A program made the position numbers and the translations under genes. A DNA stretch of 55,874 nucleotides from an uncultured Christensenella sp. (GTDB lineage Bacteria > Bacillota > Clostridia > Christensenellales > DTU072). Below the pieces are notes generated by a model that was given only the letters and a program-made list of their open reading frames with translations, ran no database searches and was not told the DNA's origin. The stretch is from assembly GCA_964368435.1 (NCBI GenBank), contig CAYJBS010000003.1:1-55874 (forward strand). The letters run 5' to 3'. Shown in pieces: positions 8,907-51,054 of the stretch (position 1 is the stretch's first letter; the number at the start of each line of letters is the position of its first letter).

Positions 8907-8935
8907 GATATGAAACAGCTACTGGAGGCTATACA

Positions 8936-9007
8936 GTGAAGAGAACAACAAAAACCATAGTTTTGATTGTGCTGACGGTGATTCTGGCACTGACCTTGTT
9001 GGCGTGT
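8936..9007 (+). other. Lipoprotein signal peptide with lipobox L-L-A-C (Cys codon 9005-9007)
   Basis: It has a basic n-region (KR..K), a 17-residue hydrophobic core, and then LLA|C, which fits the [LIVMF..]-[LIVM..]-[AGS]-C lipobox rule. Confidence 0.7.
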
Positions 9008-12000
9008 GCGCCAAAAACAGGGTTGCCGACGCCGCTACCCGATGAAGTGGGTCCGACGACTCCTATTTTTAACATAAACAAGAACCAGCTTATGCGGAAA
9101 ATAAGCGACGGAATGCTTGTTGGCGCCGAAAGAATAGAGGATAGCCAGGAAACATATGTCAGCTCTGTTTATACCATACATACGGGATACATAAACTACA
9201 CAATCGACTATAAGGCGAACTATGCCTCCAGACGCCAAAACAGTCAGATTTATGTTAAGGTATTCGACAACAACTATCACATGAACCGTATATTTATCTA
9301 TTACAACAAAGGAGATTTATTCTTACAGTCCCAAGGCGAAAAACACAGTATACCCGACTTTGGCTCGACAAATATGTTCGATCTGTTCTTTGAGCTTGTC
9401 ACGATATTCGATATGTCCGGCACCTTTATCGGACAGACCATGTCCGACCTCTTCAACCCCGACAATATCGGCGCCAACTTGAGCCCGCTTGTCGACCAGA
9501 GCCGTATGAAATACATAAAGGTCACCGACACCGCCGAGTCTATAGAAATAAGAGATGTCAACCTGAATTACGGACAAATCAAGATTCAGGTTAATGACAT
9601 GATAAAAAATACTTTCGAGAAGTTTGAGCGCAAGTTTGACTTGCTGAGCTTAAAATATTTGGGACTGCGCATCAGCGATCTTGCCATTCTTGAGATTGCC
9701 ACAATGACGGGTGACTTCATAAATGTCCGACTGGACAAGCAAGGCGTCGAAACGGTGATATTCGAAGCCAGCGGTGACATGGCGGACGGCATAAACACCT
9801 TTGACATCGATATGACAGTAGTCGCCAGGGAAGGCAAGGGCGAAATAAAGATTGACCCTACCGAAAACCCCTACACGAACACATATCCCGAGATGCTTAT
9901 GGGACGCTACAACTACGGCGGCACGCTGTTTGTACCCTTCTTTGATATGACCTACGACGCAACGCTGCGTACCATACTTTCATCGACCGACAACACCGTC
10001 AACCAAGTACTTTTCACTATTGACAGCGTCAATGAAGAGATGGGCGGTCTTTTTTATAAGGACCAAATGCTTTATGTCGATATATCGGGAATGAGTCGAC
10101 AGCTGAACGGAGCTATCGAACTCGATAAGCTCAATCTGCCCAAAGTAAAGTTTGAGGGCATAAACCTAGCGCAGGAAATTACACTGCTCATAAACGATGT
10201 ACTAAAAATTGTGCAGTCTTTCCGTCAAGATGACGACTACGGCGAGAACGAAGAGCTTATGCAGCTGGTTCTCGACAACATTTATTCCGACGAAAAGACC
10301 AACACCATATCCATAAACATAACAAAAGAACTCATACAGCAACTCTATGGAGAGGATATCGACCTAGTAGATTTGCTGGCGCAAAAACTAAAAGTAGACC
10401 GTGCGCTGATTGCGCAGATACTCGGCGACAACGCATTGGAGAACGCCGTACTGGTGCTTTCTTATAATGTAGAAAACGGAGATATCGGTGTCGACCTCTA
10501 TGACGGCGACTTCCTTGTCTTCCAATTGAGACTGTCTGTCATTGACCCTCTTCCCGGCGACAACTTGGTTTATCCCGAATCTTTCAACCCCGATTATTTC
10601 TATTGGTTGGAAATTCCCGACAACACCATACTTTCTATCGACGGTTCGCTGTCCATGCAACAGGTTTCGAAAGTACAATTTGATCAGCTTTTCGGCGCGC
10701 TGTTCGGAGACATAACAGGACTCAACACCCCATATACGTTGTACAGCAATGAGGTACTCAACTTCTCGTTGGACGTCATGCAGGTGTATAGCTATGCCGA
10801 AAATGCCTCCGGAGACAACGAACGAACCATCGAACAGGTCATGAAGTTCGAGATTTTCAAAAAAGAAGTGTTGCAACTGGGTGTGTATTCTTCTTCGGAC
10901 CCCAATTATTTGCTAGTGAATTTCAACGTGCCGATAGGTCCGTCGGGTAGCGATAAAGACGGCATTCCCTACAAACAAAGCGCGCTGAAATATCGAATAG
11001 AACGTCAGAAAGTCAAGGACGCTTTCAATGAGTTGCTCGGAGAGGACAACATTTTTGTAATGGAAAACATTATGGATGTCCTCAGCAAGCTGCTGAGTTC
11101 TGTGCGCGACAGCAAGAGTATGCAGTTGCGATTCATCAACTCAAGTTTGGCGTTCAATCTGATTTCGGACACCGTGAAAGAGATTATTGGCATCGACAAC
11201 CTGAACGCCTTGCTTCAAGCGCGCGTAAGATTTGCGGTGACGGCGGAAGAGTATCTCGACATAAAGAATATAGAAAGTCAATTTTCGACACCCAATGTTC
11301 GCCCATTGGAGAACCATACCTTTGAAAGTATATACAAGACACAATGGCACGAATTTGTTTATTCGTACTTCGGCGATAATCTTATGCGCCTAAAACTGAC
11401 TTTCCTTCCCGGTTCGGTTAAGATAGTTTCGGGCAAATATTTTTATCAGCCCAGAGCAAAAATACTTGATGTAATATCGACTTATTATGTAACAATTCTT
11501 GACGGAGACAATGGCATAAAGATTGTCGAAGCCGTTCTCGATCCCGATACCCCGAGGAACAAGGACGCTGCGCTCAGCGCCACGCATCCGATGAGTATCG
11601 ACCCGTCCACAACATCCACCCTGCCCGGACGCATTTCTGTGTTGTACGATGACGGCACTTTCGGAGATGTGGAATATATTATTGAGGGCTTTGACATCAG
11701 CAATATCACCATATCGGGCATGCCTCGCGCGGAATATTGGCTGATTATCGGCAAAGAAAGTGTGGCAGAAAAGAGCTTTTATATTGCGGTGCAGGTACTC
11801 GGAAGAGTAATAGTGCCCTTGAGTGAAGTCATAAAAGGCGAAGTTGTATACATGAAGAGCGACGAGGGCGTACCCGTAGTCGCAGAGGTTACGGTTGACC
11901 CTTATTCATATGCCATACGAAAGGCAGAGAATCCGTTATGGTCGCCGCTGCCCTCGAGTTTGATATTGAGTTTTGAGTCGCCCGACGGAATAGAAGACGG

Positions 12001-15000
12001 CGACATAATCCCCATAACGAATATTGACTGGGATTTCGATTTCTTCAATATACAATACAACGGCGGTGTATTTTATTCACACACAATGTTCAACAACCTG
12101 CCAATAGCGCTGAAGCTCAACGTAAAATCAAAAATAGTATCTTATTTGCGGTTTGTCGACTCGGTGAACCTCAATCTTCCGATTGACGAAAGACCTTATA
12201 GCGAAGCCATAGGGCAATATACCGTTGATGTGTTGCAGACGGAAACGTATACTTTCCCCACGAGCTCCACGGGGACGCAAGAGCTTAGATTGTATTATGA
12301 AGATGGCACATACAGAATAATAGGCAATCGCGACCATACTTTGGACGATTTGAATTATTATAAGAATTATTTGCCGCTGATACTTCAATGGAAGCATAAA
12401 GAAGTCAACGAAAACTCGGTACGACTTGTCGGAACAAAGGCTCCGCTGGGTATCGAAGACAAAAACATAAACACAACGACGATAGGCAACGAGGGCTTTA
12501 CGATAGGTACGCAATCCATAAGCTTGAATGTGCTTATGCCGACAAGAGCCGAAGCCAGCATAGGCAATGCAGGAAGTATTTTTGCCATAACAGCTTATGG
12601 CAGATTGGGTGACGGCAGTTACAACTTTGAAGCGCCTGTCAAAGAAATGACATCGTATTCAAATTCTGCGTTTAGTTCCAATCAAGCTTTGGGACAGTTT
12701 TTCGATTTCAACCCCTACAACCAAAAACCTTTGCCGAACAAGGTGTATCTTGATGTCATCCAAGGTGGAGAAACAAGGGTACAACGCAAGGCTTACGACA
12801 TCAAATGGGAAGAATCGGATGTATTGATGGCAAGACACACCTACAACGGTGTGGGACAAATAATCTATACGGATTATATACTCAGAAACGTCTCTACAGA
12901 CGAAGAGCATTTGCTTGTGACGGGTACTCTTGGCGACGGCAAGCATACGATATCAGTGCGGATGATTGTTCGCAATCTTGACGCGCTCTATCAAGATATT
13001 ACTTTCGAGGGCATGGAAACCAACGAAACAAGAAAGACCGTAGACCCTTACCTTGCCTACAACTTCCCGTCATACTATACTTTGATGCTCAAGAACGGCA
13101 CCGAAATAAAAGTCGAAGATGTCAAATGGTTCATTGTGTTACAACCGGGACAGAATTGGATGCTCCAATTGTACGGCAGGAGCTATCATTGGATATACGA
13201 TTATTTGCAGTATCTTGAGGATTTGTCGCAAGGCAACCCCGTCGGTTCACTCGATGACATCATTCCCGACGGTTTCAGCGTACCGACAGCCGAGGAACTG
13301 GATTATTTCCGACTGCTTCTTGAAAAAGGCGAAATTCCCATAGACAACAAATATGTCTTCTCCTATCTGGGAGGCAACTATAACATAAAGAGTTATGTCG
13401 AGGCTACGGACACTGTCATTGCGCAAGAGGTTTCTCTGTCTTTGACTGTCATATCCCGCAATGTTCTGCTGGTTGACACCGACAACGGTTATACTCGGCT
13501 GGACATCTATAATACCGACGATTCGCAACCGGCGGAGTTGTATTCGCTGGATACCTATCTGGCAGAAAGCACAACGATGCTGTCCCGTCTTGAATATCTG
13601 CGCAGATACAATGACGAATACGACCGCACCATTCGCCGCATAAACAATCTATTGACCGACCGCAGAAGAGAAAATCCCGAGCTGTCAAACGTAGTTTTGA
13701 ATGCAAATGTATATGATGAATATAAATACATATCTTCTGTAACCGAACAAGCGTTGCTGGTTTCGCACTACAACAACGTCTATGGGCAATATCCCAATTC
13801 ACCCGAGGAAGAACTCAAGTTCTTTGCTCTTCAGAGTTATATGTCCGAAAAGACCGTCACCATCAACAAGGCGAGAACCGGCATATATTTCGGAGACAAC
13901 CCCGAAACCTCGATGAATAAATATCTGCTGAACGTGAGATGGACGAACCTTGACGAAATCATCACAACGCTACAAAACAGCTCCGGCGCCGCTTTGGGTA
14001 TCAAACTTGAAGGATATCTCGGTTATGGACAAATAAACCAACAGTTGGTGAGAATTCCGTTCAAGATTACACGCAGAGAAGTGACGACTTTCAGTTTCAA
14101 CAGACTAAATACCGGAGACAGCGAGCTGTTGACGGTAGACTATAGATATGTATATATATCGGATGAAGCAGAAGCTGTCTCGATGATAAACACCATAAGC
14201 GACAACGTGTTGTTCGACAACGATATTCCGCAGCATCAGAAATCAAAAACGATTTTTGACAGACTTTATGGCATTTCTTTGGATATCGACAGACTGATAA
14301 TGGAAGAAGTCGAACAAATCATCTACAACGCCGACGAAGAGACGCGGTATGCGCTTATACTGGAAGAAATCATTCGACTGCGCACCGAAAATATCCGCAA
14401 GGTTTTCATAAACCTCAAAAAACCCATGGGCTTGACGCAGGATGACGGCGACGGCAACATGGTATTTTTGGCGCCCGGCGAATATTTCTATGAGGTATTG
14501 TCCCAAGTAAGTTTGGAATTCAATGCCGATCGCAGCACGGCAGGATATTTCGCGCCGAGATTTATCCTCGGAAACGGAGATACTCTGACGCTGCAAAAGA
14601 AAGATTTTGACGAGAAGTTGTTGCTCCCCGTCATAAAAGAAACAGATCCCATGACAGGTCTTGAGTATGCGGTTATCGACATATTGTTGACACACCTTTC
14701 TGCCGGCAGCTGTGAATATCCTGTCACGGTACGGTTCAGAGCCATTGTCGACTCGAAGGATGTCGAGGACGGTCGTCCGACGGAAAGCGAAATCGATCCT
14801 TTCGACGAAAACGGAAATATAAGATTTACGCAAGGCTACAAGCTTCCCGAAAGAATCACCATAAACTATAGATATTCACAAGCCGTCACCTTCAAAATAC
14901 CCGTAGGCGATCAAACGGGCTCCTGGAGAATAAACGGAGAAGTCCTCGAAAACGGCACTATTCCCAAGGAACAAATAAATGTACTCAACCCCTCGATTCT

Positions 15001-18000
15001 CGACTATACAACGATATTGCCGTGCAGTCAGGGAGAGTTCACCTATCACATAAGTTTCCCGCAAAAATATATCGGAAAAACGAGATATAACGCGCAAGCC
15101 GAAGACCGCGCCTTCCAAGCGCTGGACATTCAGAGCGGTATTATCGAGATCGACAATATTTATGAAATCTACGATCCGAGCAAACCAAACGGATTCGATA
15201 TAACAAAACTGCCCCATATCATAAACCCGTACACATACGAGTCGGGCGAAGTCACCTTCGACACAGGGGATGATGTTATCGAAACTTTCTTCAGCATAAC
15301 CAGCAACAATGCGTATTCTGTTGAATGGACATTAGCGAACGAATGGATAAACCGAAAAATAGACCACAACGGAACGACCGTCATAATAGACGGCGAATTG
15401 TCGGTGGAGCCTGTGTTGTTTGCGACGGCGAAGTTGGATTCATATTTTTATCTCTCAAGCAATGTCACAAGACAACTCAATCAAGAAATCGAACTTTACA
15501 TAAAAGTAAAGCCCCTTGCCAATCCGATAATCGAGTTTGAAGGACTGATAGACTACAGCGACAACAATTATATCAGTTTCGACCCGTACGACGACCCCAA
15601 CAATTATGGCGGCAATCTGGTGTTGCCCAAAAACGGCTTGACGGTTTATTTCAATAACAACCTGAACGATTCGCACACTTTTGACGCCAGAGCAATACTG
15701 TCGTACGAGATGCTTATGGCGGATTCGACCAATATTGTCCGCGCTCACCTTTATGATGCTCTTATGAAAAGAAGCAACACTTCGGATGTCGAGAAGAGAG
15801 CTTATCTCAAGACACAGCTGAGCAGCATAATATCGGCTTATGCGGCAGGAATGAATATCAGCATAGCGCAAGCCACCGAGAATATTTATTCTGCGGCTTT
15901 TGATGCAGTGCTTGAAAGCGGTTCGATGCTGCAAGCAGAAAGACAAGAACAAAGAACCTTCCTTATAGATTTCGCCTCAAGTCTTTTGTCGACTCATTAC
16001 GGTTTTTCGGATTCCGCCGCATGGCTCAAGTTGATGCAGATAAATGGTTCCGAAAGCGCAAAATCGGCTATCATAATGGATTATATTCGTACACTGTCGG
16101 GCTTCAACGAAGTCGGCATCATCAGAGATTTGTCGGCGCTTTATGCCGCCTATAATTTCTTCCTTTCGGGTGCATCCCAAGCAGAGAAGCAAGGCATAGT
16201 ATCGATGTACCTAGCAGCATTCAGCGCAACCCAAAAGGCGTCCATAACGGCTCTTCTTGAGACGCGGGACTTGTATAGCGGCGAAAGAATGCTGGCTCTC
16301 GAAACAATAAATCAGCAGGGCGGCATCCCCGACCAAATGCAACGTTATGCCCAAATATTCGATTTGGTAATGGAAATGGTCAGCGTAAACAGCCGACTGG
16401 ACATATTGCGTCTTGCTCTTGCAGAGAGCAGTTTTTGCCAACTTATCGCATCTTCGACGACGGAAACCAAAGAGAATGTGTCGAAGGCATTGTTGTTCAT
16501 CGAGCTTGCGGCAGTGGTACAAAGCAGAACCGACTATCTCGGCGCTATGAGTATGAGTATGGCAAGAGCAATGAACGGCTGGATAAGCAGTGAAGACACT
16601 TTCGCGTATATGTGGCAAAGACATATTGCCGCGACGATAGAAAGGGCAGACTATTTGAGCCTTAAGACGCTTGTTGAGACCTATATGTCGGTGGCGTCGG
16701 CAATGAGCATAAACAGGACAAAAGAAATTGTCTTCAGCAGGCTCATAAATGTCTATGATTATAATGAGACTGATATGCAGAACTACTTTGGCTCATCGGG
16801 TGATGAGATTGCGGCAAGAATGTTGCAGATGGCTGTCAGCAACGCGCAAACGCAGCTTCAAGATTGGCAAATACAAAGAGCCAAATCGGCAGTTTGGCAA
16901 TCCATAACCGCCGCTTTCACCGATGACGGAATATTGGCAAGAGTACTCAATGGGGAGAACGACACCGAGAACACCGGAAGAATCGACACCGTTGCCGTCA
17001 ACGCCTTGGCATATGAGAGGTTGAGACTTTCGCAATACCTTCCTATATTTGAGGCTAGGTTGAATGCTTTGGAAGATCAAATAGTCGATCCCAATCAAGA
17101 ACAAAGAAGAGCAGCCATTTATCGGGCATTATATGATGAAAGCTCCCTCGACGAAAAAGTTATACTTGCAGAGCTTATGGCGGCTTCTTATTATTCCGTA
17201 TCCGACACACAGAGTTTGGTCGGAGCCGTTCCCTATACTCAGGCAGGGCACAGCGTAGTTGAAATTGACAGCAACATTTTATATCTGATTCTATATTTAC
17301 CCGACGGTCAAACCATCAATGTTACGCTGAACATTTTTAGCAGAGAAATAAAAGAAGTGATGGTCCCCAACACAATCACCAACGAAACAGGAGGCGAGGT
17401 CAAAACGGCGCAAATCAATATACCCAATATCTATTATATTGATCCATACAACTCCGAGACCTTCAGACTGCCTTCGAAGGCTGAATTTGTCTTCGAAACA
17501 GGCTATAATCTTGTGCTTGACATAAACGAGTGGCTGGATTATGACAACAATGTCTTCTATACCAGAGGTCAAAGCTTCGATGAAAACGCGATTTATTATT
17601 ACAATCTTACCGAAAACAGCTATCGCGGCGGACATTATACGCTTAAGTCATATCTTACTTATGGCATCGGCGTCAATGCGGAAAGACAGCTTTTCGAAAT
17701 ACAAATAATTGTGCTTAACCGCACACTGAAACAGCAGTATACCGAAAGTTTTGATTTTGAGAATCCTATTGCAGGCAGACGTCAAGACATTCCCTCGAAA
17801 CTGACAAATGATATGTTTGTCGGAATTGATGTCTATTATAAGAATTTCATTGCCCCCGAGTATTATTACTCCAATTTCGGCACGCCTGTTGTGCCGCAAA
17901 TCGACTGGTCAAAAACCTCATACAATGAGTCGGGACTCAACGATTCGGATATCCTTGTTTCGGGAGGCTTTGATATCAATGTTTTGGGGTATCTCTATTA

Positions 18001-21000: not shown

Positions 21001-24000
21001 ATACCAAAGATTTTTGGTTATGCACTATGACGGAGACGTCGAAAAGATTGATGTCGACACCATAAAGAAGCATGCGCTGTTGCGTTTAAGGGAACTTCAT
21101 CGCAAAGAAAGTATGGATTATTATAATGGTATTTTGCAATCCGGACTTGCGGCTTATGTCGTAAGCTACAAGGCTTTGGCTTGGCAAAGATATTATGATT
21201 ATAACCTGGAGAATAATGAAGAAAGGGCTGAGGCTATGGACAGCATTCTTCATGGCGCCGTGACAAGCATTATGGATACTCTGCAGGCAGAAGCGCTGGA
21301 TAGGCTCTATCAAGCGCTTGCCGAAGACGCTACTTCGAGAATAACAGCTACGGAAGAAAATCTCATCAGCACCATAAAGCAAAATGAATTGTGGATATCG
21401 CTGTTCGGCGAAGACCTCGACGCGCTTAAAGATATGCTCGGGGACATTTTGCCCATTGACGACAACAATCTTACTTTGAAAGATGAGGCGTGGCAGACAC
21501 TTATGTCACTGCTTAATCAAAGATCGACATATTTCACGTTGCTACTTGTTCAGAAAACGCAAACTCTTGAACAGTATCCGCAGCAAACTCAAGACTACAG
21601 AGATACAAGCAGCTGGGATGCGTTGTATCAGCTGGGAGTGCCGGGACTTGCACAGCTTATGGATGAAGTACTTGCGACATATGGTCTTTTCGGCGACAGC
21701 AACAAACATCTGGCGTTCAGAGATCTTGAAATCATGCTGACTACCGACCATACACATCTCGACCGCATGGAAATGATGCGCGCACTTGTTTTTGGCGAGA
21801 ATACGCAACTGTCGGAGAAAGAAATAAACGCCCAAGCGTTCGATCGAACATGTGCAAATTATGTTGCAATCGCAAGCCGTCTTGAAGAAGCGGTGTTGGA
21901 CATAAAGCATAATGCATGGCAGGTCTTTGTTGCCGAAAATTCCGGCAATGTTTTGCTAATCTCTCTTTTTGAAGAGATGTACGTTCTCGAGCTTTTGTAT
22001 CAAAACAATGACGAAAAGCGCGCGGCAACGGTATGCTGGGACAGATTTGTTAATATGACCGTAAATATCGAAGAAACGCTGGCATCTGCCGATCAGAGGT
22101 ATTCCGAAGACGAGTTGAGAGCCTTCTCTATCGGCTGTATCCTTGATTTGTTGGGCGGCGACGAAAGAGCGGTATTGCAAAATGCGCTTGACGAAATAGT
22201 CATAAATTATACCGCCGATCAACTTTGCGCAATGGTTTATGACATAGTGTACAGCGCAAGCATACCTGTCGAAAAAGCCGCAATGAAACAATTGTATGAT
22301 ATTCAAGCATCGGGAGGCGGTACCGTAGAAGCTATCAAGATGCGTACGCTGAACGCATACAAAGCACAAAAAAGTCAAAACGCCACAAGTGTTATTGATG
22401 ATGCTTATGAGACATTGAGCGACAGCGAAAAAACAGCGCTTTTTGCAGCATTCCACACTCCGACAATCAGTGACCCAATTGAGGTATATACACTTGATCT
22501 TGCCGAGCAATATTGGAATGGAGGCAAGATCGATACTGCATATGGCAGAATCAATATTTTCTGGGATCTTGAGGTGTTGGAAGACGGCGGCGACATAGCC
22601 AAGATCTTTATCGGCAACGCCTACAAAGCCATAGACAATGTCGACAATGAGTTTAATTATCAAACAAATGTTTTTGAAGTAAATAACTTCATATATAAGA
22701 ACAGACAGATTATCATCGAAAAACTCGATTTCTATGGGGAACTGAACATATATTCGGGAGAGGAAGTCATCGATGTAGCAAACTACTACAATCAACTTGT
22801 CATAGACCCCCTCAGCCCATATATCCCGCAAAAGGTAGCGGCATACGGCAGTATCACAGGAGTGACACCCAATGTCGAAATAGACGGCGAGTTATACAGC
22901 TATATCGGCGAAGTCGATGTCAGTTTTGAGAGCAGAATAAACGAGTTCTTGTATGACGACGAGGGCGTTGCCGGAGAAAGCATGACGGCAACGGTTTCCC
23001 CGGGACTTGGCGAGGGATCGCAGAATATTACCATAACGGTGTATTATCTGAACCGTCAACCGATTACGTACTACGTCAACAATCAAGATTATACCGTAGA
23101 AATGCTTGATGAGGATCTCAACCTTTATCCCTTGAGCATGAATATCGGTGACAATAAGGTGTTGACGGTTGATCCGCTAAACGACAATATTTATAATACC
23201 AACACAAACAAATATATTCTGCCGAACTCTTTGGTGGTTATGTTTACCGACGCTTATGCCGACGGTGTCATCTCGACGCTGTTTATGAACGGTGTCTTCA
23301 ACAACAGACTGGACATAAGCGGCATAAACTGGAACCTTATGGGCAAAAGCATTACGCTAGCGGGGATTGCGCCGTCGAATATCAGCATTGACGGTTATAC
23401 CGTAGACAACCAAAATATCGTCTCGACAGCTCAAATGAACAGCGATTTCTGGAAAATACAGCTTGACGTTCTTGAGAAAGAAGTAGACAGAACTTTGGAA
23501 GTCAATCAGCAGGGGCAAGGCGGCATAATTCTGGCGTCACAAAGCGGCGGTCTGTTGACTGCCACCAAAAAGATAGACCCCTACAATGTCATGGTATCTT
23601 TCCCCGACCATGTGAGAGTAGAATTTACCGACGGTTCGGAATCAAAACTTTTGACCAACATCTCATGGCAGTTTGCAGAGGGACGCGGACTTGAATATCT
23701 GCAACTTCCCGAAGTAATTACCGGCGCCATCGGAGAAAGCGCAATGTTCATAACTGCCGGTTTCAAGTGCGTCAGTGAGACTATCTGGATAAACTTCCCC
23801 ATCCAGAAACGTCATATCGACATAAGCGTCGAGGGCTCCGAAGAAATAAGATATCTTGAAGGCGGTACGATTTATTTAATTAAGGGTGTAGACTTGATGA
23901 CTCAGCTGAACAAGTACAGCAGTTTATACTACAACTTTGCCGATTACGGGCAGCCTGAGGACTGGTCGGAAGTGCCGTTAGAATTCTTGCCCAATGATGT

Positions 24001-27000
24001 CAGCCAAATAAGCACTGCCGAAGTAGGGACATACACCATTCGCGGCAGGTTGGGACAAATAAACGATCCCAACATAGTTTTTGAGATTGTTGTGATAGAT
24101 CCCAAGCTATACGCCATAGATATCAACGGACAACTCAACCCGAAAGTCTATTATGACAGCTTGACTGCCGGCGTAAACACCTTCGGCGTTCGTCAAGTAG
24201 GCAAGGAGAATGAGGAGAACTTCCTCCCAAGCAACCTGGTACAACTCAGCGTCACCGATAATGGCGGCAATGTTGTTATAGGATACAATGAGTTCGAAAT
24301 AACAGAAAGCTATTGGGACATTGCAAACAAAAAAGTTATATTCACCTGCGTATATACTTTCCTTGACGAGAGTGACGATGTCGAAAGGCTCGCCGGAGGA
24401 TTGGGCGGTAGTCAGCAACTTTACTTTACAGTTTCGCTGCCGCTGAAGACTTATTTGTATTCGGCAATAGACGACACCATGGTACTGCGAGCCGGCAGCA
24501 ATGACGGCACCAATATCCTGAAGTTGACTCTTGGCGAACCACTAAAAATGTCGGATCTCCCCAACGCAATTATGAACTACGGCAGAGAGAACGCTTTCGA
24601 AGTACCTCTGCTTTGGGATTTGCGCACCATAAATGTCAACAAAGCAGGCACCTACAACCTTTTCGGATATTACAGAGATTATACCTCGTCATATCCCAAG
24701 AGCAAGAACCTTGAGGTAGTCATCGACAAGGTTGACATAAGCAGTGCGGTTTCCACGCTGTATTCCTTGACTCAGACGTATACAGGATTGTATATCGAAG
24801 TGGTGCCGGTACTGCCGGATGTGCTGCGAGAGCAAGGCAATTATGCGCAATTACGGCTGGGCAGAGACATAATAGTCGAATATCTGACCGAAGAAAAATA
24901 CATTCTTGAAGCTTTTGAGGAATTCAGCACGACACCGTACAAAGACGCAGGCGCGTATTTTGTCAGAATAACAGTTGAAGATTACAACACCTTCGGACAA
25001 AAAGTCTTCCGTATGCTCATAAATCCTATTGAGATAGACCCGAAAGACATCATATTTGAATACGGCGAAGGCGCACAAGATTGGGCGGTCGAGATTCCCG
25101 AATGGCCCGAAACAGAAGAAGCAAAGAACAGGCTGTTCTTCAATCAGTTCCGCGCCTACGCCAACCAAAATCTCGGCTCTAATGTTTCCGCAAGAGTGCG
25201 CGCGGCGGCTTTTGAGACCTTGAAGGAGAGTGTCGGTTTGACTGCGCAAAAGCTATTGACCGATCGTTATAACACCATATTAGCAAACAACTTCCCGCAA
25301 TACGACACTTCCGATGTCGCCGAAAAAACCACTATTGAGCTTTTAACGAAAGCTATGGTTTGGGAAGAGATCGCTCCATACGGAGTCAGTGGCGAGCTGC
25401 TAGTGCCCGGTTGGCCGAAGAATTCCGACGAAAAACAAGGGCTTTTTGAAGAGGCGAAACAACAGCTGGAAGAAAACAGCGGCGACAAAGAAGCCATGGC
25501 TCAGGCGTATGACAATCTGTTTGCCCTTGTCATAGCTCTGGCACAGGTGCTCTTACAAAACAGATTCGACGAAATACTTCAAACCCGTTTCCCGAACTAT
25601 CACGAGGCAACGGAATCTATGAAGACATTTATGATGATAGAAGCCAAGTCTATCGTGTGGTCCGAAATCACCCCCACCGGTCTAATTGGACAGCCATTAA
25701 TAGCCAACTGGCCGAGAACTATGAATGAAAAAGAACTGATGCTTGATGATGAGTATGAATACCTGCTTAACCTCTCGCTGGCAGGCAGCGAAAGAGAGCT
25801 GTTCATAAAGCAGGTCAAGGCATTGGCATACAACGAGTTGCTTGCCACGGTATACGCCACGGCGCAAACAAAATTGCAAACAAGCCTTGATACGATTCTG
25901 CAGATTTATTATCCGTTATATAACACATACGGCGACGAACAGAAAGCTCTGATTCTTACCGAGGCAAAAAGCCTTGTTTGGGACCAGGTTGTGCCGGGTG
26001 ACACCGTCACAGAAAAGAGCTATGTATATGACGGACAGGACCACATGCCCGTAGTTACGGGTATGCCGCAAGCAAAAATTATCGGTTGGCCACAAACTCC
26101 CGACGAAAAGGCAGCGCTGCTGGACTTTGCGCGTACCGAAAACTCCAACTTCACAGAAATCGAGGTACGGGCAAGGGCATTTGACAACCTTATGCAGCGG
26201 ATATATTCCAACGTTTTTGCCTTGCAGAAAATAACTGATATCTTGAATTTGGTTATTGAGGAATTCTATCCCGCTTACAATTTGCCTTCGACGCCCTATG
26301 AAGAAAGACAGCAGCTGCTCCTTGAAGCAAAAGCAAAGGCGTGGGACTCCAGAATAATTTATGCCGATACGGTGGAGGAGATTTATTATTCCTTCACATA
26401 CTGGTATGCCGACATGAGCAACAACGGCATGATTACCAACACAAGACCGCGTTCGGCAGGCACATATGAAATTACACTTTTGATAGATCCGCTGCTGAAC
26501 CGCAACTACCGTCTAAAAGCCGATGCTGCCATTATGACGACAATCAGCATAAGAATAGCAAATATAGACAAAAACTTCCTGAATGAGATGGTTTATAGCG
26601 GAACGGCTATTATGCCCGAATGCCCGGGAATGCACGACGAAAACGGCGATCTGCCCGAAGGCGTCAGCATAGAATATACGTATATAAAAGACGGCAGAGC
26701 AGTAGAGTACATAAGAGATGTCGGTCAATATTTCTTCACCGCTGTCGTAAACGGCGGCAACAACTATCCTTCGTGGCAAAGCGAATCACTACTCATAAAC
26801 ATATTGAAGAAGGACTTGATTATTGATGTCGGTTTGGTCGAAAGCGGCTATCTTGAAAAGACGAAAGCCTTCAACAGCAGCGTAACTTTTGACGGTGTAG
26901 TAGGCAATGATTTGCCCTCGATGTTCGGTTATTTGGTTTGCAACAGCCCTGTCACCGACAAACATATGGTAGGTGATTATGATATCACTTTCCAAGGCTT

Positions 27001-27934
27001 CAAGTACTCCTATGACGACGAAAAGATATATTACCTAAACGCCGCTATACCTGCAGACGATGTGCTTACAATGAACGCAACACTCTTCGAAAACTATAAC
27101 ATAACCGTCATAAACGGCACCTATAGAATCAAAAAAGCCAACGAGAATGCCGTCATCATAAATGACAGAGCAGAACTTGACGCGCATTATAACGCTTTGC
27201 CAGAGGGCAATTCCGTCATCTGGTATCTTGCGGAAGGAAACTTCGGTGACCTAGTCATAAACAAGAACGTGGGTATCACTATCATAGGTTGCTATGACGT
27301 CAACGCCGTCTTTGAGACCTTCGAAAACGTCGAGGACAATCACGAAAGAACTATGAGCATCATAAAATCCGATGCCAAACACGTGGTGACAATCTTTGAA
27401 AGCGTAGTCATAAACAGAGGCGCGCTGACGCTGGATATAGTTAAGATCGGCGGCAAAATCAACAAGCAATCGATTTTTGTCGGCGCGGGTGCGTCTGCGG
27501 TAGAAGTAAGAAGAAGTTCACTTGTCCATACCGAAGTATTCGGTGACGGCGGTGTTTCGATACCTCAGAACGCAAGCGCAATATATTCTTCGCCCTCGTT
27601 CAAAGACTTGCTCAGAATAGACAGAACTTATGTCGAAGGTTTCACCACAGCGGTATACCTGAACGGCGCCGGTTCTTTGGAAGTAGTCAACAGCAGGTTT
27701 AACCGCAACACCATAACCGCAATACGATGCTACAACAATACAGTACACATAGAAGGCAGCCGTTTCGAGTTCACGGGAGAGAATGCGCTATATCTGGAAA
27801 TGATAGATTATACCGTCATAAACAGCTCCTTCATGAGTAACAGAGTAGCCATAAAATCTCTGACCTCGAACACCTATGACTTGTGGCTGGAGAACACATT
27901 CGTAAACAACGTAAAGGACATAGTCGCACTATAA
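8936..27934 (+). CDS. Giant predicted lipoprotein, 6,332 aa, with a mosaic of Ig-like modules, long helical tracts, 4 tandem repeats, an MBG-like region and a C-terminal parallel beta-helix; function unknown
   Basis: The GTG start at 8936 sits 7 nt after GGAGG (8924-8928). The ORF-track TTG at 8798 would overlap the upstream ORF by 108 nt and adds no signal-like sequence. The frame is uninterrupted for 18,999 nt to TAA at 27932-27934. The N terminus is VKRTTKTIVLIVLTVILALTLLAC, followed by the Pro/Thr tether APKTGLPTPLPDEVGPTTP. There is no C-terminal LPXTG or TM segment. Confidence 0.85.
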   Translation: MKRTTKTIVLIVLTVILALTLLACAPKTGLPTPLPDEVGPTTPIFNINKNQLMRKISDGMLVGAERIEDSQETYVSSVYTIHTGYINYTIDYKANYASRRQNSQIYVKVFDNNYHMNRIFIYYNKGDLFLQSQGEKHSIPDFGSTNMFDLFFELVTIFDMSGTFIGQTMSDLFNPDNIGANLSPLVDQSRMKYIKVTDTAESIEIRDVNLNYGQIKIQVNDMIKNTFEKFERKFDLLSLKYLGLRISDLAILEIATMTGDFINVRLDKQGVETVIFEASGDMADGINTFDIDMTVVAREGKGEIKIDPTENPYTNTYPEMLMGRYNYGGTLFVPFFDMTYDATLRTILSSTDNTVNQVLFTIDSVNEEMGGLFYKDQMLYVDISGMSRQLNGAIELDKLNLPKVKFEGINLAQEITLLINDVLKIVQSFRQDDDYGENEELMQLVLDNIYSDEKTNTISINITKELIQQLYGEDIDLVDLLAQKLKVDRALIAQILGDNALENAVLVLSYNVENGDIGVDLYDGDFLVFQLRLSVIDPLPGDNLVYPESFNPDYFYWLEIPDNTILSIDGSLSMQQVSKVQFDQLFGALFGDITGLNTPYTLYSNEVLNFSLDVMQVYSYAENASGDNERTIEQVMKFEIFKKEVLQLGVYSSSDPNYLLVNFNVPIGPSGSDKDGIPYKQSALKYRIERQKVKDAFNELLGEDNIFVMENIMDVLSKLLSSVRDSKSMQLRFINSSLAFNLISDTVKEIIGIDNLNALLQARVRFAVTAEEYLDIKNIESQFSTPNVRPLENHTFESIYKTQWHEFVYSYFGDNLMRLKLTFLPGSVKIVSGKYFYQPRAKILDVISTYYVTILDGDNGIKIVEAVLDPDTPRNKDAALSATHPMSIDPSTTSTLPGRISVLYDDGTFGDVEYIIEGFDISNITISGMPRAEYWLIIGKESVAEKSFYIAVQVLGRVIVPLSEVIKGEVVYMKSDEGVPVVAEVTVDPYSYAIRKAENPLWSPLPSSLILSFESPDGIEDGDIIPITNIDWDFDFFNIQYNGGVFYSHTMFNNLPIALKLNVKSKIVSYLRFVDSVNLNLPIDERPYSEAIGQYTVDVLQTETYTFPTSSTGTQELRLYYEDGTYRIIGNRDHTLDDLNYYKNYLPLILQWKHKEVNENSVRLVGTKAPLGIEDKNINTTTIGNEGFTIGTQSISLNVLMPTRAEASIGNAGSIFAITAYGRLGDGSYNFEAPVKEMTSYSNSAFSSNQALGQFFDFNPYNQKPLPNKVYLDVIQGGETRVQRKAYDIKWEESDVLMARHTYNGVGQIIYTDYILRNVSTDEEHLLVTGTLGDGKHTISVRMIVRNLDALYQDITFEGMETNETRKTVDPYLAYNFPSYYTLMLKNGTEIKVEDVKWFIVLQPGQNWMLQLYGRSYHWIYDYLQYLEDLSQGNPVGSLDDIIPDGFSVPTAEELDYFRLLLEKGEIPIDNKYVFSYLGGNYNIKSYVEATDTVIAQEVSLSLTVISRNVLLVDTDNGYTRLDIYNTDDSQPAELYSLDTYLAESTTMLSRLEYLRRYNDEYDRTIRRINNLLTDRRRENPELSNVVLNANVYDEYKYISSVTEQALLVSHYNNVYGQYPNSPEEELKFFALQSYMSEKTVTINKARTGIYFGDNPETSMNKYLLNVRWTNLDEIITTLQNSSGAALGIKLEGYLGYGQINQQLVRIPFKITRREVTTFSFNRLNTGDSELLTVDYRYVYISDEAEAVSMINTISDNVLFDNDIPQHQKSKTIFDRLYGISLDIDRLIMEEVEQIIYNADEETRYALILEEIIRLRTENIRKVFINLKKPMGLTQDDGDGNMVFLAPGEYFYEVLSQVSLEFNADRSTAGYFAPRFILGNGDTLTLQKKDFDEKLLLPVIKETDPMTGLEYAVIDILLTHLSAGSCEYPVTVRFRAIVDSKDVEDGRPTESEIDPFDENGNIRFTQGYKLPERITINYRYSQAVTFKIPVGDQTGSWRINGEVLENGTIPKEQINVLNPSILDYTTILPCSQGEFTYHISFPQKYIGKTRYNAQAEDRAFQALDIQSGIIEIDNIYEIYDPSKPNGFDITKLPHIINPYTYESGEVTFDTGDDVIETFFSITSNNAYSVEWTLANEWINRKIDHNGTTVIIDGELSVEPVLFATAKLDSYFYLSSNVTRQLNQEIELYIKVKPLANPIIEFEGLIDYSDNNYISFDPYDDPNNYGGNLVLPKNGLTVYFNNNLNDSHTFDARAILSYEMLMADSTNIVRAHLYDALMKRSNTSDVEKRAYLKTQLSSIISAYAAGMNISIAQATENIYSAAFDAVLESGSMLQAERQEQRTFLIDFASSLLSTHYGFSDSAAWLKLMQINGSESAKSAIIMDYIRTLSGFNEVGIIRDLSALYAAYNFFLSGASQAEKQGIVSMYLAAFSATQKASITALLETRDLYSGERMLALETINQQGGIPDQMQRYAQIFDLVMEMVSVNSRLDILRLALAESSFCQLIASSTTETKENVSKALLFIELAAVVQSRTDYLGAMSMSMARAMNGWISSEDTFAYMWQRHIAATIERADYLSLKTLVETYMSVASAMSINRTKEIVFSRLINVYDYNETDMQNYFGSSGDEIAARMLQMAVSNAQTQLQDWQIQRAKSAVWQSITAAFTDDGILARVLNGENDTENTGRIDTVAVNALAYERLRLSQYLPIFEARLNALEDQIVDPNQEQRRAAIYRALYDESSLDEKVILAELMAASYYSVSDTQSLVGAVPYTQAGHSVVEIDSNILYLILYLPDGQTINVTLNIFSREIKEVMVPNTITNETGGEVKTAQINIPNIYYIDPYNSETFRLPSKAEFVFETGYNLVLDINEWLDYDNNVFYTRGQSFDENAIYYYNLTENSYRGGHYTLKSYLTYGIGVNAERQLFEIQIIVLNRTLKQQYTESFDFENPIAGRRQDIPSKLTNDMFVGIDVYYKNFIAPEYYYSNFGTPVVPQIDWSKTSYNESGLNDSDILVSGGFDINVLGYLYYDNNLLIKTYQQIWQALYNQFAATTKPLAWEKFFEIMVSGERVVKTIFAGEAAVQIKALDDLIYDELYIQAYKNTVKNANVDLLGKIQNLMETLRNNNIGLIADESSELWYIVYYQDLEAKAKNSTLSEMEAEVWSALYSTYVSEEITTISLLRAQKWDELFAMAGIWQAQQKQTALSYLDQAYNVYRDFMLVSTWETLESVATFKEAVVMSEIVERLRQLYGSIEQAKIRGWDFLRNDDRTKGIIGETAQVNITAKSWDFNEIRNMIDEIISEITFNAFTKTSNDNTFKVTFEVLNTLLIERLNEALNDTILAYYDDYRDDALDLFKQMLMDIALEEVNAVDQANDGLNGNARKEQNWDDLFDIRTYEATSPIDDTRADVEASGTTEQYARDMIVWQRLLEGAGEWLDEMTQIYIDTGLLGVPDYQRYYYAVDTYRALRVSVFTEEMNQLLSKAYFNESHNAWNTVSMNPQGYGETAASIEYILLKDVLREAWMALEGYSTAQQVSAMRSHLNSSAYGVLQYSRGWISYYNSLSIPDAARKSLMDDLRLYYYGFDTTTGQYAGYGAIYDYISLHPESIGETLEELNSLKAVIAAEMAGEKMQSIVVETIRRFFNYSAAMTDIYQIYLDDLKRDAWAYLIERKLYPAEMVALLPDSVLKPVAWNLLYAMREQTATDEHALIDGYFNSIAADLIDQQAKDAYDYLLALNAGTVDEDRQNDILNGLDSDAIKTVLWQELFAVSEGSDKLSMESTLNQVIREGKVSGIDAESISWNRLLDKNETSPARKALMSEMYETYTKARAFELYVIEKHEESSQTEDDLLDYYIQSYKKSKVWEELNNEANLERQLLMDDIIMAIEHADENIRRAMSLDVLVGLVPEEADIIYLRVQTTQLEYGNNEIKQQIKSIEWDTYYSAASTQRRQAMDVILNNYSNILKIIDRKAAALDDSSFHNLIGATESQALEDRLRTQFDALLETFFYVKTYDDLYTSTFTAELDDCYDYVYQRFLVMHYDGDVEKIDVDTIKKHALLRLRELHRKESMDYYNGILQSGLAAYVVSYKALAWQRYYDYNLENNEERAEAMDSILHGAVTSIMDTLQAEALDRLYQALAEDATSRITATEENLISTIKQNELWISLFGEDLDALKDMLGDILPIDDNNLTLKDEAWQTLMSLLNQRSTYFTLLLVQKTQTLEQYPQQTQDYRDTSSWDALYQLGVPGLAQLMDEVLATYGLFGDSNKHLAFRDLEIMLTTDHTHLDRMEMMRALVFGENTQLSEKEINAQAFDRTCANYVAIASRLEEAVLDIKHNAWQVFVAENSGNVLLISLFEEMYVLELLYQNNDEKRAATVCWDRFVNMTVNIEETLASADQRYSEDELRAFSIGCILDLLGGDERAVLQNALDEIVINYTADQLCAMVYDIVYSASIPVEKAAMKQLYDIQASGGGTVEAIKMRTLNAYKAQKSQNATSVIDDAYETLSDSEKTALFAAFHTPTISDPIEVYTLDLAEQYWNGGKIDTAYGRINIFWDLEVLEDGGDIAKIFIGNAYKAIDNVDNEFNYQTNVFEVNNFIYKNRQIIIEKLDFYGELNIYSGEEVIDVANYYNQLVIDPLSPYIPQKVAAYGSITGVTPNVEIDGELYSYIGEVDVSFESRINEFLYDDEGVAGESMTATVSPGLGEGSQNITITVYYLNRQPITYYVNNQDYTVEMLDEDLNLYPLSMNIGDNKVLTVDPLNDNIYNTNTNKYILPNSLVVMFTDAYADGVISTLFMNGVFNNRLDISGINWNLMGKSITLAGIAPSNISIDGYTVDNQNIVSTAQMNSDFWKIQLDVLEKEVDRTLEVNQQGQGGIILASQSGGLLTATKKIDPYNVMVSFPDHVRVEFTDGSESKLLTNISWQFAEGRGLEYLQLPEVITGAIGESAMFITAGFKCVSETIWINFPIQKRHIDISVEGSEEIRYLEGGTIYLIKGVDLMTQLNKYSSLYYNFADYGQPEDWSEVPLEFLPNDVSQISTAEVGTYTIRGRLGQINDPNIVFEIVVIDPKLYAIDINGQLNPKVYYDSLTAGVNTFGVRQVGKENEENFLPSNLVQLSVTDNGGNVVIGYNEFEITESYWDIANKKVIFTCVYTFLDESDDVERLAGGLGGSQQLYFTVSLPLKTYLYSAIDDTMVLRAGSNDGTNILKLTLGEPLKMSDLPNAIMNYGRENAFEVPLLWDLRTINVNKAGTYNLFGYYRDYTSSYPKSKNLEVVIDKVDISSAVSTLYSLTQTYTGLYIEVVPVLPDVLREQGNYAQLRLGRDIIVEYLTEEKYILEAFEEFSTTPYKDAGAYFVRITVEDYNTFGQKVFRMLINPIEIDPKDIIFEYGEGAQDWAVEIPEWPETEEAKNRLFFNQFRAYANQNLGSNVSARVRAAAFETLKESVGLTAQKLLTDRYNTILANNFPQYDTSDVAEKTTIELLTKAMVWEEIAPYGVSGELLVPGWPKNSDEKQGLFEEAKQQLEENSGDKEAMAQAYDNLFALVIALAQVLLQNRFDEILQTRFPNYHEATESMKTFMMIEAKSIVWSEITPTGLIGQPLIANWPRTMNEKELMLDDEYEYLLNLSLAGSERELFIKQVKALAYNELLATVYATAQTKLQTSLDTILQIYYPLYNTYGDEQKALILTEAKSLVWDQVVPGDTVTEKSYVYDGQDHMPVVTGMPQAKIIGWPQTPDEKAALLDFARTENSNFTEIEVRARAFDNLMQRIYSNVFALQKITDILNLVIEEFYPAYNLPSTPYEERQQLLLEAKAKAWDSRIIYADTVEEIYYSFTYWYADMSNNGMITNTRPRSAGTYEITLLIDPLLNRNYRLKADAAIMTTISIRIANIDKNFLNEMVYSGTAIMPECPGMHDENGDLPEGVSIEYTYIKDGRAVEYIRDVGQYFFTAVVNGGNNYPSWQSESLLINILKKDLIIDVGLVESGYLEKTKAFNSSVTFDGVVGNDLPSMFGYLVCNSPVTDKHMVGDYDITFQGFKYSYDDEKIYYLNAAIPADDVLTMNATLFENYNITVINGTYRIKKANENAVIINDRAELDAHYNALPEGNSVIWYLAEGNFGDLVINKNVGITIIGCYDVNAVFETFENVEDNHERTMSIIKSDAKHVVTIFESVVINRGALTLDIVKIGGKINKQSIFVGAGASAVEVRRSSLVHTEVFGDGGVSIPQNASAIYSSPSFKDLLRIDRTYVEGFTTAVYLNGAGSLEVVNSRFNRNTITAIRCYNNTVHIEGSRFEFTGENALYLEMIDYTVINSSFMSNRVAIKSLTSNTYDLWLENTFVNNVKDIVAL
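15690..17200 (+). other. Presumed alpha-helical tract A of the 6,332-aa protein (~500 aa)
   Basis: Composition was judged by eye: rich in A/L/E/Q/S/R/Y and poor in G/P. It carries motif instances such as EKRAYLKTQL, YMWQRHI, AVWQSIT, NALAYERL and RRAAIYRALYDE. Boundaries are approximate. Confidence 0.4.
18020..22520 (+). other. Presumed alpha-helical tract B of the 6,332-aa protein (~1,500 aa), punctuated by Trp motifs
   Basis: This is a continuous A/L/E/Q/D/Y-rich sequence without DP[YF]..LP modules. By eye there are at least 20 W-[DEQN]-x-[LFIY] sites, including QIWQALY, QKWDELF, QNWDDLF, VLWQELF, KVWEELN, LAWQRYY, SSWDALY and VCWDRFV. Boundaries are approximate. Confidence 0.45.
25091..26365 (+). 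repeat. Four diverged tandem protein repeats (~99-126 aa each) inside the 6,332-aa ORF
   Basis: The conserved Trp codons of the W-P anchor lie at 25103, 25412, 25709 and 26087, giving periods of 309, 297 and 378 nt. Each unit reads [IV]-x-x-WP-x-[TN]-x-[DEN]-EK ... A-x-A-[FY]-[ED]-[TN]-L ... AQ..L ... IL...[FY]P.Y ... E[KR]....L.EAK..VW[EDS]. The repeat is visible at protein level only; the DNA has diverged. Confidence 0.8.
26378..27140 (+). other. MBG-like (YGX-type adhesin-associated) region
   Basis: The motifs YVYDGQDHMPVVTG (just upstream, ~26020-26065), MVYSGTAIMPECPG, RSAGTYEITLL..NRNYRL and ENYNITVINGTYRIKKA resemble the Y-x-Y-[DS]-G ... AG-x-Y ... NY-x-[IL] ... G-x-[LY]-x-I pattern of MBG domains. 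The assignment is by memory of that pattern only. Confidence 0.4.
27150..27931 (+). other. C-terminal right-handed parallel beta-helix (PbH1-type) repeats
   Basis: Coils of ~22-25 aa recur: LEVVNSRFNRNTITAIRCYNNTVHIEGSRFEF, ALYLEMIDYTVINSSFMSNRVAIKS and YDLWLENTFVNNVKD. This fits the v.i.NS.F..N..aI pattern typical of pectate-lyase-fold PbH1 repeats. Confidence 0.6.
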
Positions 27935-28019: not shown

Positions 28020-28049
28020 TTGACACCAAGAAACGCACTATTATATAAT
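28020..28049 (+). promoter_or_regulatory. Sigma-A-type promoter for the metallopeptidase-dockerin operon
   Basis: TTGACA (28020-28025), an 18-nt spacer, then TATAAT (28044-28049); both hexamers match consensus. GGAGG (28063-28067) and ATG (28073) follow closely, implying a short 5' UTR. Confidence 0.6.
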
Positions 28050-51045: not shown

Positions 51046-51054
51046 GATAGAATT

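Follow-up and report, generated by a model that had tools for sequence, protein, structure and literature searches.

The stretch of DNA analysed here (the window) comprises 55,874 nt from an uncultured Christensenella sp. (assembly GCA_964368435.1, contig CAYJBS010000003.1, positions 1 to 55,874 of the forward strand). Between positions 8936 and 27934 of its + strand, it holds a single unbroken open reading frame (ORF) of 6,332 amino acids (aa) plus stop, which we refer to as the giant lipoprotein gene. The ORF starts with a GTG codon at 8936, 7 nt after a Shine-Dalgarno (SD) sequence, GGAGG, at 8924 to 8928 (+), and runs uninterrupted to its stop at 27934, with a level G+C content across the region. 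The same arrangement of SD and GTG, along with the signal peptide, recurs in the orthologues of two related metagenome-assembled genomes (MAGs), L004 and L005. An earlier sequence-only reading of this DNA had proposed the same ORF, and the SD-led start codon, the colinear orthologues and the low ratio of nonsynonymous to synonymous substitution rates (dN/dS) described below all bear it out: the giant ORF is genuine, intact and selected. The likeliest, as yet unproven, reading of its product is that of an extended, non-enzymatic and lipid-anchored surface fibre serving as an adhesin or as an envelope scaffold.

The N terminus of the giant protein, MKRTTKTIVLIVLTVILALTLLAC, looks like that of an exported lipoprotein. 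Three of the first seven residues are Lys or Arg, the h-region has a mean hydropathy of 2.96, and the string TVILALTLLAC matches a PROSITE PS51257-type regular expression in which Cys24 is the lipobox cysteine; using this pattern and hydropathy, we place the signal peptide with its LLAC lipobox at 8936 to 9007 (+). A stricter Gram-positive lipobox pattern is failed by the giant protein, which carries Leu at position -2. The cysteine is found at the same place in seven of seven orthologues, and the PS51257-type match extends to all of them as well as to a paralogue encoded directly upstream. Next to the lipobox, a Pro/Thr-rich tether can be read from the translation at aa 25 to 45 (9008 to 9070, +), and the orthologues have a P/G/D/E-rich segment at this position. 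Elsewhere in the giant protein, a hydropathy scan found no second hydrophobic segment, and a motif scan found no LPxTG anchor. Neither lgt nor lsp is present within the window, the sole signal peptidase there being the S26 signal peptidase I. We regard the giant protein as an exported lipoprotein that is anchored via the predicted lipidation of Cys24. Because every orthologue and the paralogue retain the lipobox, the N terminus would be the membrane-proximal end, as the sequence-only reading had assumed along with the lipobox and the tether; the N-terminal anchor is the best-supported part of that earlier interpretation.

For an estimate of how widely such proteins occur, we searched 1.84 billion representative proteins by phmmer with aa 3020 to 4219, obtaining six clusters: a fragment (P0003, 63% identical), four with full-length proteins (P0004, P0005, P0006/P0009 and P0007) and P0008. 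The last of these (E = 1e-4) was discarded as spurious, reflecting a match to Listeria-Bacteroides repeats. The full-length orthologues are all metagenomic, 6,261 to 6,803 aa long, colinear with the giant protein and 38 to 50% identical to it. When one genome per GTDB species was scanned with a pattern, two carriers emerged: L004, a Christensenellales MAG with 89% identity, and L005, a "Clostridiales" MAG with 69% identity which belongs to a biogas-reactor MAG collection (PMC7038595). A JGI contig, L006, represents the same locus as L005. A word-index search added two metagenome-assembly fragments that are 75 to 77% identical to the C terminus. With the N-terminal 1,200 aa and with alignment A3, the same search returned nothing, which reflects a limit of the tool, since full-length orthologues exist; it missed orthologues of >6,000 aa held in its own collection, making its negatives unreliable for giant proteins. 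Patterns taken from the fast-evolving helical tracts likewise matched nothing in contigs of genomes and metagenomes, and alignments of conserved regions later gave matches. The giant lipoprotein family is genuine and, by these searches, very narrowly spread, comprising a few uncultured Christensenellales (Clostridia) genomes. Compared with L004, the giant gene shows a dN/dS of 0.04 to 0.13 per 250-residue block over aa 1 to 4000 where computable, values that are approximate because dS is saturated and that point to strong purifying selection.

Secondary structure along the giant protein was judged from composition, from hydrophobic periodicity over five orthologues, and from DSSP assignments of two low-confidence AlphaFold models, of which we used only the secondary structure, and this cautiously. 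By composition, periodicity and DSSP, the order and coordinates of the layers put forward in the sequence-only reading hold. Beyond the tether lies a conserved region of mixed alpha/beta character, which we call the base (aa 60 to 760; 9113 to 11215, +). It belongs to the portion of the protein that is conserved most strongly, is common to the upstream paralogue and is 52 to 66% identical to the orthologues, with no match in Pfam or PDB. An AlphaFold model of this region from a five-sequence alignment reached a mean pLDDT of 38.7 and was mixed alpha/beta by DSSP; a Foldseek search with this low-confidence model gave no match with E ≤ 0.001, lipid-binding folds being among the top entries at E ≥ 0.23. 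One might take the base to consist of TULIP/LolA-like lipid-binding folds and the primary role of the protein to be lipid or membrane handling. In favour of this, the modelled secondary structure features beta-meanders wrapping long helices, and Takeout, BPIFA1, a carotenoid-binding protein and Osh4 are among the top Foldseek matches. However, these matches are non-significant (E ≥ 0.23, TM ≤ 0.13) and derive from a model of the above low pLDDT, PCNA and porins score equally in the same list, and there is no support at the sequence level, all of which makes a lipid-handling role very unlikely.

The base is followed by beta modules with interspersed helical segments (aa 761 to 2250; 11216 to 15685, +), which carry Big_4-like "DPY...LPxxVxVxF...W" motifs, are colinear with aa 108 to 862 of the upstream paralogue and found no match in a PDB profile search. 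Along the whole protein, beta periodicity dominates at aa 1000 to 1400, 1800 to 2000, 2800 to 2900, 4600 to 5400 and 6200 to 6300, while helical stretches within the first 2,200 aa were seen at aa 400 to 500, 1400 to 1600 and 1700 to 1800. The earlier description of this part as ~2,200 aa of beta-rich modules therefore needs amending: the beta modules are there, but periodicity and DSSP indicate a mixed alpha/beta character for the N-terminal 2,200 aa, helical stretches included.

The middle of the giant protein is occupied by two helical tracts, at aa 2251 to 2755 (tract 1; 15686 to 17200, +; 23 to 33% identity to orthologues) and aa 3024 to 4510 (tract 2; 18005 to 22465, +; rich in indels). 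Between them sits a short beta block (aa 2756 to 3023; 17201 to 18004, +) that contains a Big_4-like motif and is 53 to 55% identical to the orthologues. Three lines of evidence speak for helix in the tracts. Pro and Gly together account for only 2 to 6% of residues at aa ~2260 to 2755 and ~3024 to 4510. Alpha-type hydrophobic periodicity is present in almost all 100-aa blocks of both tracts in the alignment of five orthologues. Lastly, DSSP of the low-confidence AlphaFold prediction assigns helices to aa 2265 to 2751 and from 3024 onward, with strands and coil at 2770 to 3010 (aa 2230 to 3429 were modelled without an alignment; mean pLDDT, 33). Each of these lines is weak, but they are mutually concordant, and they agree with the helical tracts that had been read from the sequence at 15690 to 17200 and 18020 to 22520, flanking a short beta block.

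What is repeated in these tracts is a short motif, K[SA]x[AV]W[QD]xL[YF]. Tract 2 can be divided into ~27 degenerate helical units, each carrying a conserved Trp, and internal profile matches among the tract units are weak. Across orthologues, the tract 2 Trp residues are 88% conserved as compared to an overall tract identity of ~27%, a contrast that accords with the statistics of the motif and argues that the tracts are arrays of folded helical units rather than disordered regions or a continuous coiled coil, with the Trp of each unit probably buried. We did consider a coiled coil and rejected it, as the heptad signal in a crude scan does not exceed that of shuffled sequence and most helices in the low-confidence model span 13 to 40 residues. 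The larger orthologues P0007 and P0009 (6,773 to 6,803 aa) have insertions of 90 to 156 alignment columns after giant-protein aa 1016, 1792 and 5485, the third of which falls inside the C-terminal repeat region. In P0007, the first two insertions contain extra Trp-motif or similar helical stretches between beta modules, suggesting that the Trp helical unit is an expandable spacer module that can be gained and lost.

Downstream of tract 2, beta or Ig-like modules are predicted at aa 4511 to 5385 (22466 to 25090, +). Here, Pfam reports a Big_4 (PF07532) match at aa 5213 to 5244 (24572 to 24667), which at 21.4 bits falls short of the cut-off of 22.1. The same family has a precomputed match on the fragment P0002 and scores 18.4 bits in P0005, and a regular expression for the Big_4-like motif matches the giant protein four times, with 0.57 matches expected. 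Beta periodicity at aa 4600 to 5400 supports the ~840 aa of modules described earlier, but their label "Ig-like" depends on the sub-threshold Big_4 match. The next element, four tandem helical repeats of ~100 aa each with the signature WPxTxxEK ... AKxxVW, had also been noted from the sequence and was readily recovered by BLAST (E values down to 3e-21) and HMM (down to 1e-44) at aa 5386 to 5815 (25091 to 26380, +). An MBG-like strand, KSYVYDGQDHMPVVTG, lies between the third and fourth repeat. No Pfam or PDB entry matched the repeat profile. We rejected the possibility that these are FIVAR repeats, given an hhalign probability of 0 against a FIVAR protein encoded in the window. Each of the four repeats is closed by the K[SA]x[AV]W[QD]xL[YF] motif of the tracts. 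As to whether the tract units are copies of these repeats, profile HMM matches were marginal, and hhalign gave 81% probability for one unit and ≤61% for the others; such descent is not proven, the link being the shared K..xW..L motif only.

The MBG-like beta modules that come next (aa 5816 to 6060; 26381 to 27115, +) were recognized through an "AGTYEITL...NYRL" motif read from the sequence. The earlier label is not backed by curated models: searches for MBG (PF17883, PF18676 and PF18887) gave no match in the window protein at E ≤ 0.1, and two orthologues produced sub-threshold MBG_3 matches of 16.2 and 14.7 bits (E = 0.012 and 0.034; cut-off, 25). The giant protein ends in a region resembling a right-handed beta-helix (aa 6061 to 6332; 27116 to 27931, +), with a cap motif, "EGNSVIWYLAEGNFGDLVI...IIGCYD", and at least five coils of 22 to 24 aa. 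In its last ~110 aa, five copies of the motif "hxhx[N/G/R][S/T]xF" are spaced by 22, 22, 22 and 24 residues; hydropathy autocorrelation at lag 22 is weak, being reached by 31 of 500 shuffles. With regard to the earlier label of PbH1 for 27150 to 27931, the 22- to 24-residue motif period stands, but neither Pfam beta-helix models nor PDB searches detect the fold, even with a six-sequence profile.

Searches for recognizable functions yielded little. Pfam returned the one sub-threshold Big_4 match and nothing else that recurs in the orthologues, NCBIfam returned no match, and neither did PDB sequence and profile searches with six regions of the giant protein or tblastn against phages and plasmids. 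Sequence and profile searches of Pfam, NCBIfam and PDB gave no catalytic domain, and the motif scan detected no HExxH, GxSxG, Walker A or RTX, in agreement with the earlier statement that catalytic and toxin-like motifs are absent. Approximately 95% of the 6,332-aa protein lies outside all curated families and solved structures.

Many right-handed beta-helix domains are glycan-degrading enzymes, and a beta-helix of the type seen at the C terminus could be one as well. We therefore considered whether the giant protein might be a surface-tethered, glycan-acting enzyme in which a divergent CASH/pectate-lyase-like lyase or hydrolase is presented on a stalk; the earlier statement that no catalytic motif is present would then not hold. 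The beta-helix-like cap motif, the 22-residue coil period and a set of polar residues that are invariant in the orthologues (IIGCYD, R, QN and H..FE) would be compatible with this, and a GH20 hexosaminidase gene is located nearby. In contrast, no lyase or hydrolase profile in Pfam, NCBIfam or PDB matched, even when a six-sequence profile was used, tblastn to phage depolymerases found nothing, and the beta-helix is short, with ~8 coils. Moreover, the GH20 protein has no signal peptide and is probably unrelated. We consider the enzyme explanation unlikely. Even less can be said for a polymorphic toxin or contact-dependent effector with a toxic C-terminal domain, an idea prompted by large size and surface location only. 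The C terminus is conserved rather than polymorphic, with 41 to 55% identity over the last 500 aa as compared to 19 to 34% in the helical tracts; the domain and motif searches turned up neither RHS/YD, LXG nor HExxH, nor any further toxin signature; and the next gene encodes a 2,307-aa lipoprotein under its own promoter instead of a small, immunity-like protein. A toxin is, in our view, hardly credible.

How conservation is distributed along the protein proved more informative. Identity to the orthologues peaks at 55 to 65% over the N-terminal 1,200 aa, is mostly 41 to 62% in the C-terminal 1,400 aa, where the first two tandem repeats drop to 28 to 31%, and reaches its lowest values in the helical tracts (19 to 34%), which also show the most indels and length variation. 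In the tracts, dN is two- to fourfold higher than in the N-terminal 2,250 aa, with dN/dS still ≤0.13. The low identity, the abundance of indels and the raised dN would be expected of a spacer, and the overall pattern fits two functional ends joined by one. Spacer-like evolution is in keeping with the extended stalk that the sequence-only reading had inferred for the tracts, but helical rods are not supported: no heptad signal rises above that of shuffled sequence, and the units are predicted to consist of short helices, with a near-invariant Trp in each.

On the upstream side, the giant gene is adjoined by a paralogous ORF (3 to 8906, +) that is cut by the window start, is colinear with giant-protein aa 678 to 1377 and has Trp-motif helical stretches of its own. 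Its full-length counterpart in L006 is ~3,620 aa long, bears a lipobox (SMIAC) and aligns with giant-protein aa 2 to 612 (E = 1e-33). The pair of paralogue and giant gene is kept in four loci, namely, the window, L004, L005 and L006, and we take the giant gene to be the second of a conserved tandem of paralogous lipoprotein genes with predicted products of ~3,600 and then ~6,300 aa. A gap of 29 nt between the upstream stop codon and the start of the giant gene suggests co-transcription. In L006, positions 3108 to 5159 encode an acidic, 683-aa lipoprotein (SVVAC) directly upstream of the two giant paralogues, itself preceded by SodC-like and ZIP-transporter genes. Its identity to the giant protein over the initial 113 aa of the latter amounts to 27% (E = 0.001), and a homology to the base is unsupported, as hhalign against aa 60 to 760 gave a probability of 0.2%.

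Our preferred reading, to which we give an even chance of being right, is a lipid-anchored fibre whose spacer holds out a distal end to contact an external ligand. A conserved alpha/beta base of ~1,200 aa would sit at the membrane, where pairing with the corresponding part of the paralogue may occur. The beta modules and the two arrays of Trp units (~2,000 aa) would form a spacer, loosely constrained in length and sequence, that carries the remaining protein through and past the cell wall. At the far end, the Ig-like and MBG-like modules, the four helical repeats and the short beta-helix would contact the ligand, for which a glycan borne by another cell or by a particle is the most plausible candidate. 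That the tip mediates adhesion or carbohydrate binding is inference only, by analogy with modules of this kind.

Several observations weigh against this fibre reading. The strongest conservation is found at the membrane-proximal end and not at the tip, which would fit a base-centred role, for instance in assembling a complex or in the structure of the envelope, no less well than adhesion by the tip. The Ig, MBG and beta-helix labels are all under curated thresholds, and Pfam, NCBIfam and PDB searches with the C-terminal 1,800 aa, both for the giant protein and for three orthologues, gave no adhesive domain. A crude heptad scan of the tracts placed only 1 to 2% of 35-residue windows above the 99.5th percentile of shuffles. 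Both AlphaFold models are of low confidence (pLDDT, 33 and 39) and do not support an extended shape. The sequence-only model also leaves the membrane-proximal conservation and the region shared with the paralogue unexplained.

The main rival is an envelope scaffold, which accounts for the conservation pattern at least as well as the fibre or adhesin does. Here, the two paralogues (giant protein and ~3,600-aa protein), perhaps joined by the 683-aa lipoprotein, would assemble via the shared base into a wall-spanning or surface-layer structure, with the helical arrays serving as struts and the C-terminal modules binding the cell's own wall polymers. This explanation can draw on the membrane-proximal 1,200 aa being the most conserved and colinearly common to the tandem paralogue, on the retention of the gene pair in all four loci and on the fact that both paralogues are predicted lipoproteins. 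However, the Pfam and NCBIfam searches revealed no wall-binding domain, whether SLH, CWB2 or of another kind, the small number of carrier genomes is unusual for an essential envelope component, and the homology of the 683-aa protein is unproven. Overall, we see a scaffold as possible yet doubtful. A more far-reaching proposal can also be made: the Trp units would represent an undescribed extracellular helical-repeat fold making up a stalk of at least tens of nanometres, and the shared base would join the tandem lipoproteins (a third member is possible but unproven) into a hetero-oligomeric, lipid-anchored surface organelle specific to a digester lineage of Christensenellales and used, for example, for attachment to syntrophic partners. 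We hold this to be improbable; if true, it would amount to a new class of Gram-positive surface appendage, going beyond another adhesin.

Downstream of the giant gene, a predicted sigma-70 promoter (TTGACA-18-TATAAT; 28020 to 28049, +) matches the consensus at 12 of 12 positions and lies 24 nt upstream of the ATG of the next gene, which, given this promoter, is probably its own transcription unit. This gene (28073 to 34996) encodes the above-mentioned 2,307-aa lipoprotein, with lipobox LVFLSC, RCC1 repeats, Big_2 and Big_3 domains, a weak M6-peptidase match and, at its C terminus, a dockerin-like motif, DANGDGLFDDKD. Overlapping it by 4 nt is a gene for a 243-aa cohesin lipoprotein (34993 to 35724), and the two may form a membrane-anchored cohesin-dockerin pair. 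Synteny of the giant gene and the 2,307-aa gene is also observed in L001. With the upstream paralogue, the RCC1/Big_2 protein and the cohesin, the neighbourhood is rich in surface lipoproteins, a point in favour of the fibre reading. An exact look-up with one neighbouring protein of the window retrieved no record. Other neighbours in the window include spoIIE, tilS, hpt and genes for signal peptidase I, a P-type ATPase, and a glycyl-radical enzyme with its activase, from which we place the locus on the chromosome of a sporulating member of the Clostridia. At 48562 to 51987, the glycyl-radical enzyme (PFL-like plus Gly_radical domains) adjoins the radical-SAM activase, downstream of a GntR/FCD regulator. 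Another surface protein, of 522 aa, is predicted at 53665 to 55233 on the - strand from a Lectin_like domain, a FIVAR domain and a hydrophobic segment at its C terminus; this FIVAR domain has no relation to the helical repeats of the giant protein.

If the giant protein is a surface fibre, it would add an N-terminally lipid-anchored form of reversed topology to the fibrillar adhesins of Gram-positive bacteria, together with a new helical spacer element and a large conserved base domain. In any case, a gene pair under apparently strong selection and conserved in a lineage of uncultured digester Clostridia provides a concrete target for cryo-electron tomography and metaproteomics in Christensenellales. 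The present evidence does not amount to a new biological principle, and the relation of the giant protein to known systems is best seen by direct comparison.

Ebh and Embp, giant surface proteins of staphylococci, are rods of FIVAR-GA helical bundles anchored by a C-terminal membrane segment. The giant lipoprotein resembles them in being a very large predicted surface protein that devotes much of its length to short helical units which could stack into a rod. Unlike in Ebh and Embp, there is no FIVAR or GA match in Pfam, hhalign finds no relation between the repeat profile and the in-window FIVAR domain, the units are highly degenerate instead of near identical, and the lipid anchor is N-terminal. 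With the PbH1/CASH pectate-lyase-like proteins, the likeness is restricted to the C-terminal ~270 aa, which have a "GxxIxLxxGxY"-type cap and "hxIxNSxF" coils with a period of 22 to 24 residues, but escape Pfam beta-helix models and PDB profiles and show no recognized catalytic signature. Similarly, the giant protein shares with MBG and Big_4 surface proteins of Firmicutes the motifs "YDG...P" and "AGTYxITL...NYxL" (MBG) and "LPxxVxVxFxDG...VxW" (Big_4), whereas scores in the giant family stay below the cut-offs (Big_4, 21.4 versus 22.1 bits; MBG_3, 14.7 to 16.2 versus 25 bits).

Fibrillar adhesin-like proteins of Gram-positive bacteria, as defined by Monzon et al., are extracellular and combine an adhesive region at one end with a surface anchor and a stalk that forms a rigid rod, usually from tandem stalk domains (PMC8286594). 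Like these, the giant protein would be a giant extracellular single chain with an anchor at one end, a long spacer and distinct domains at the far end. Its topology, however, is reversed: the lipid anchor is N-terminal and the tip C-terminal, whereas fibrillar adhesins have the adhesive domain at the N terminus and LPxTG at the C terminus, and a lipobox is not among the anchors in that survey (PMC8286594). It also has no catalogued stalk or adhesive Pfam domain above threshold, and about one-third of its length is an array of non-identical helical units rather than tandem beta domains. Finally, West-Roberts et al. described giant proteins in Omnitrophota and Clostridia that exceed 10,000 to 30,000 aa, those of Omnitrophota having many transmembrane segments and SecA-like domains and those of Clostridia having RCC1, Listeria-Bacteroides and dockerin repeats (bioRxiv 10.1101/2023.11.21.568195). 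While likewise very large, poorly annotated, derived from uncultured bacteria and suspected of interactions at the cell surface, the giant lipoprotein differs from them in having a single signal peptide, none of their domains and a mostly non-repetitive sequence. The giant protein falls within the known range of giant surface proteins, to which it adds an undescribed helical unit and an undescribed base region.

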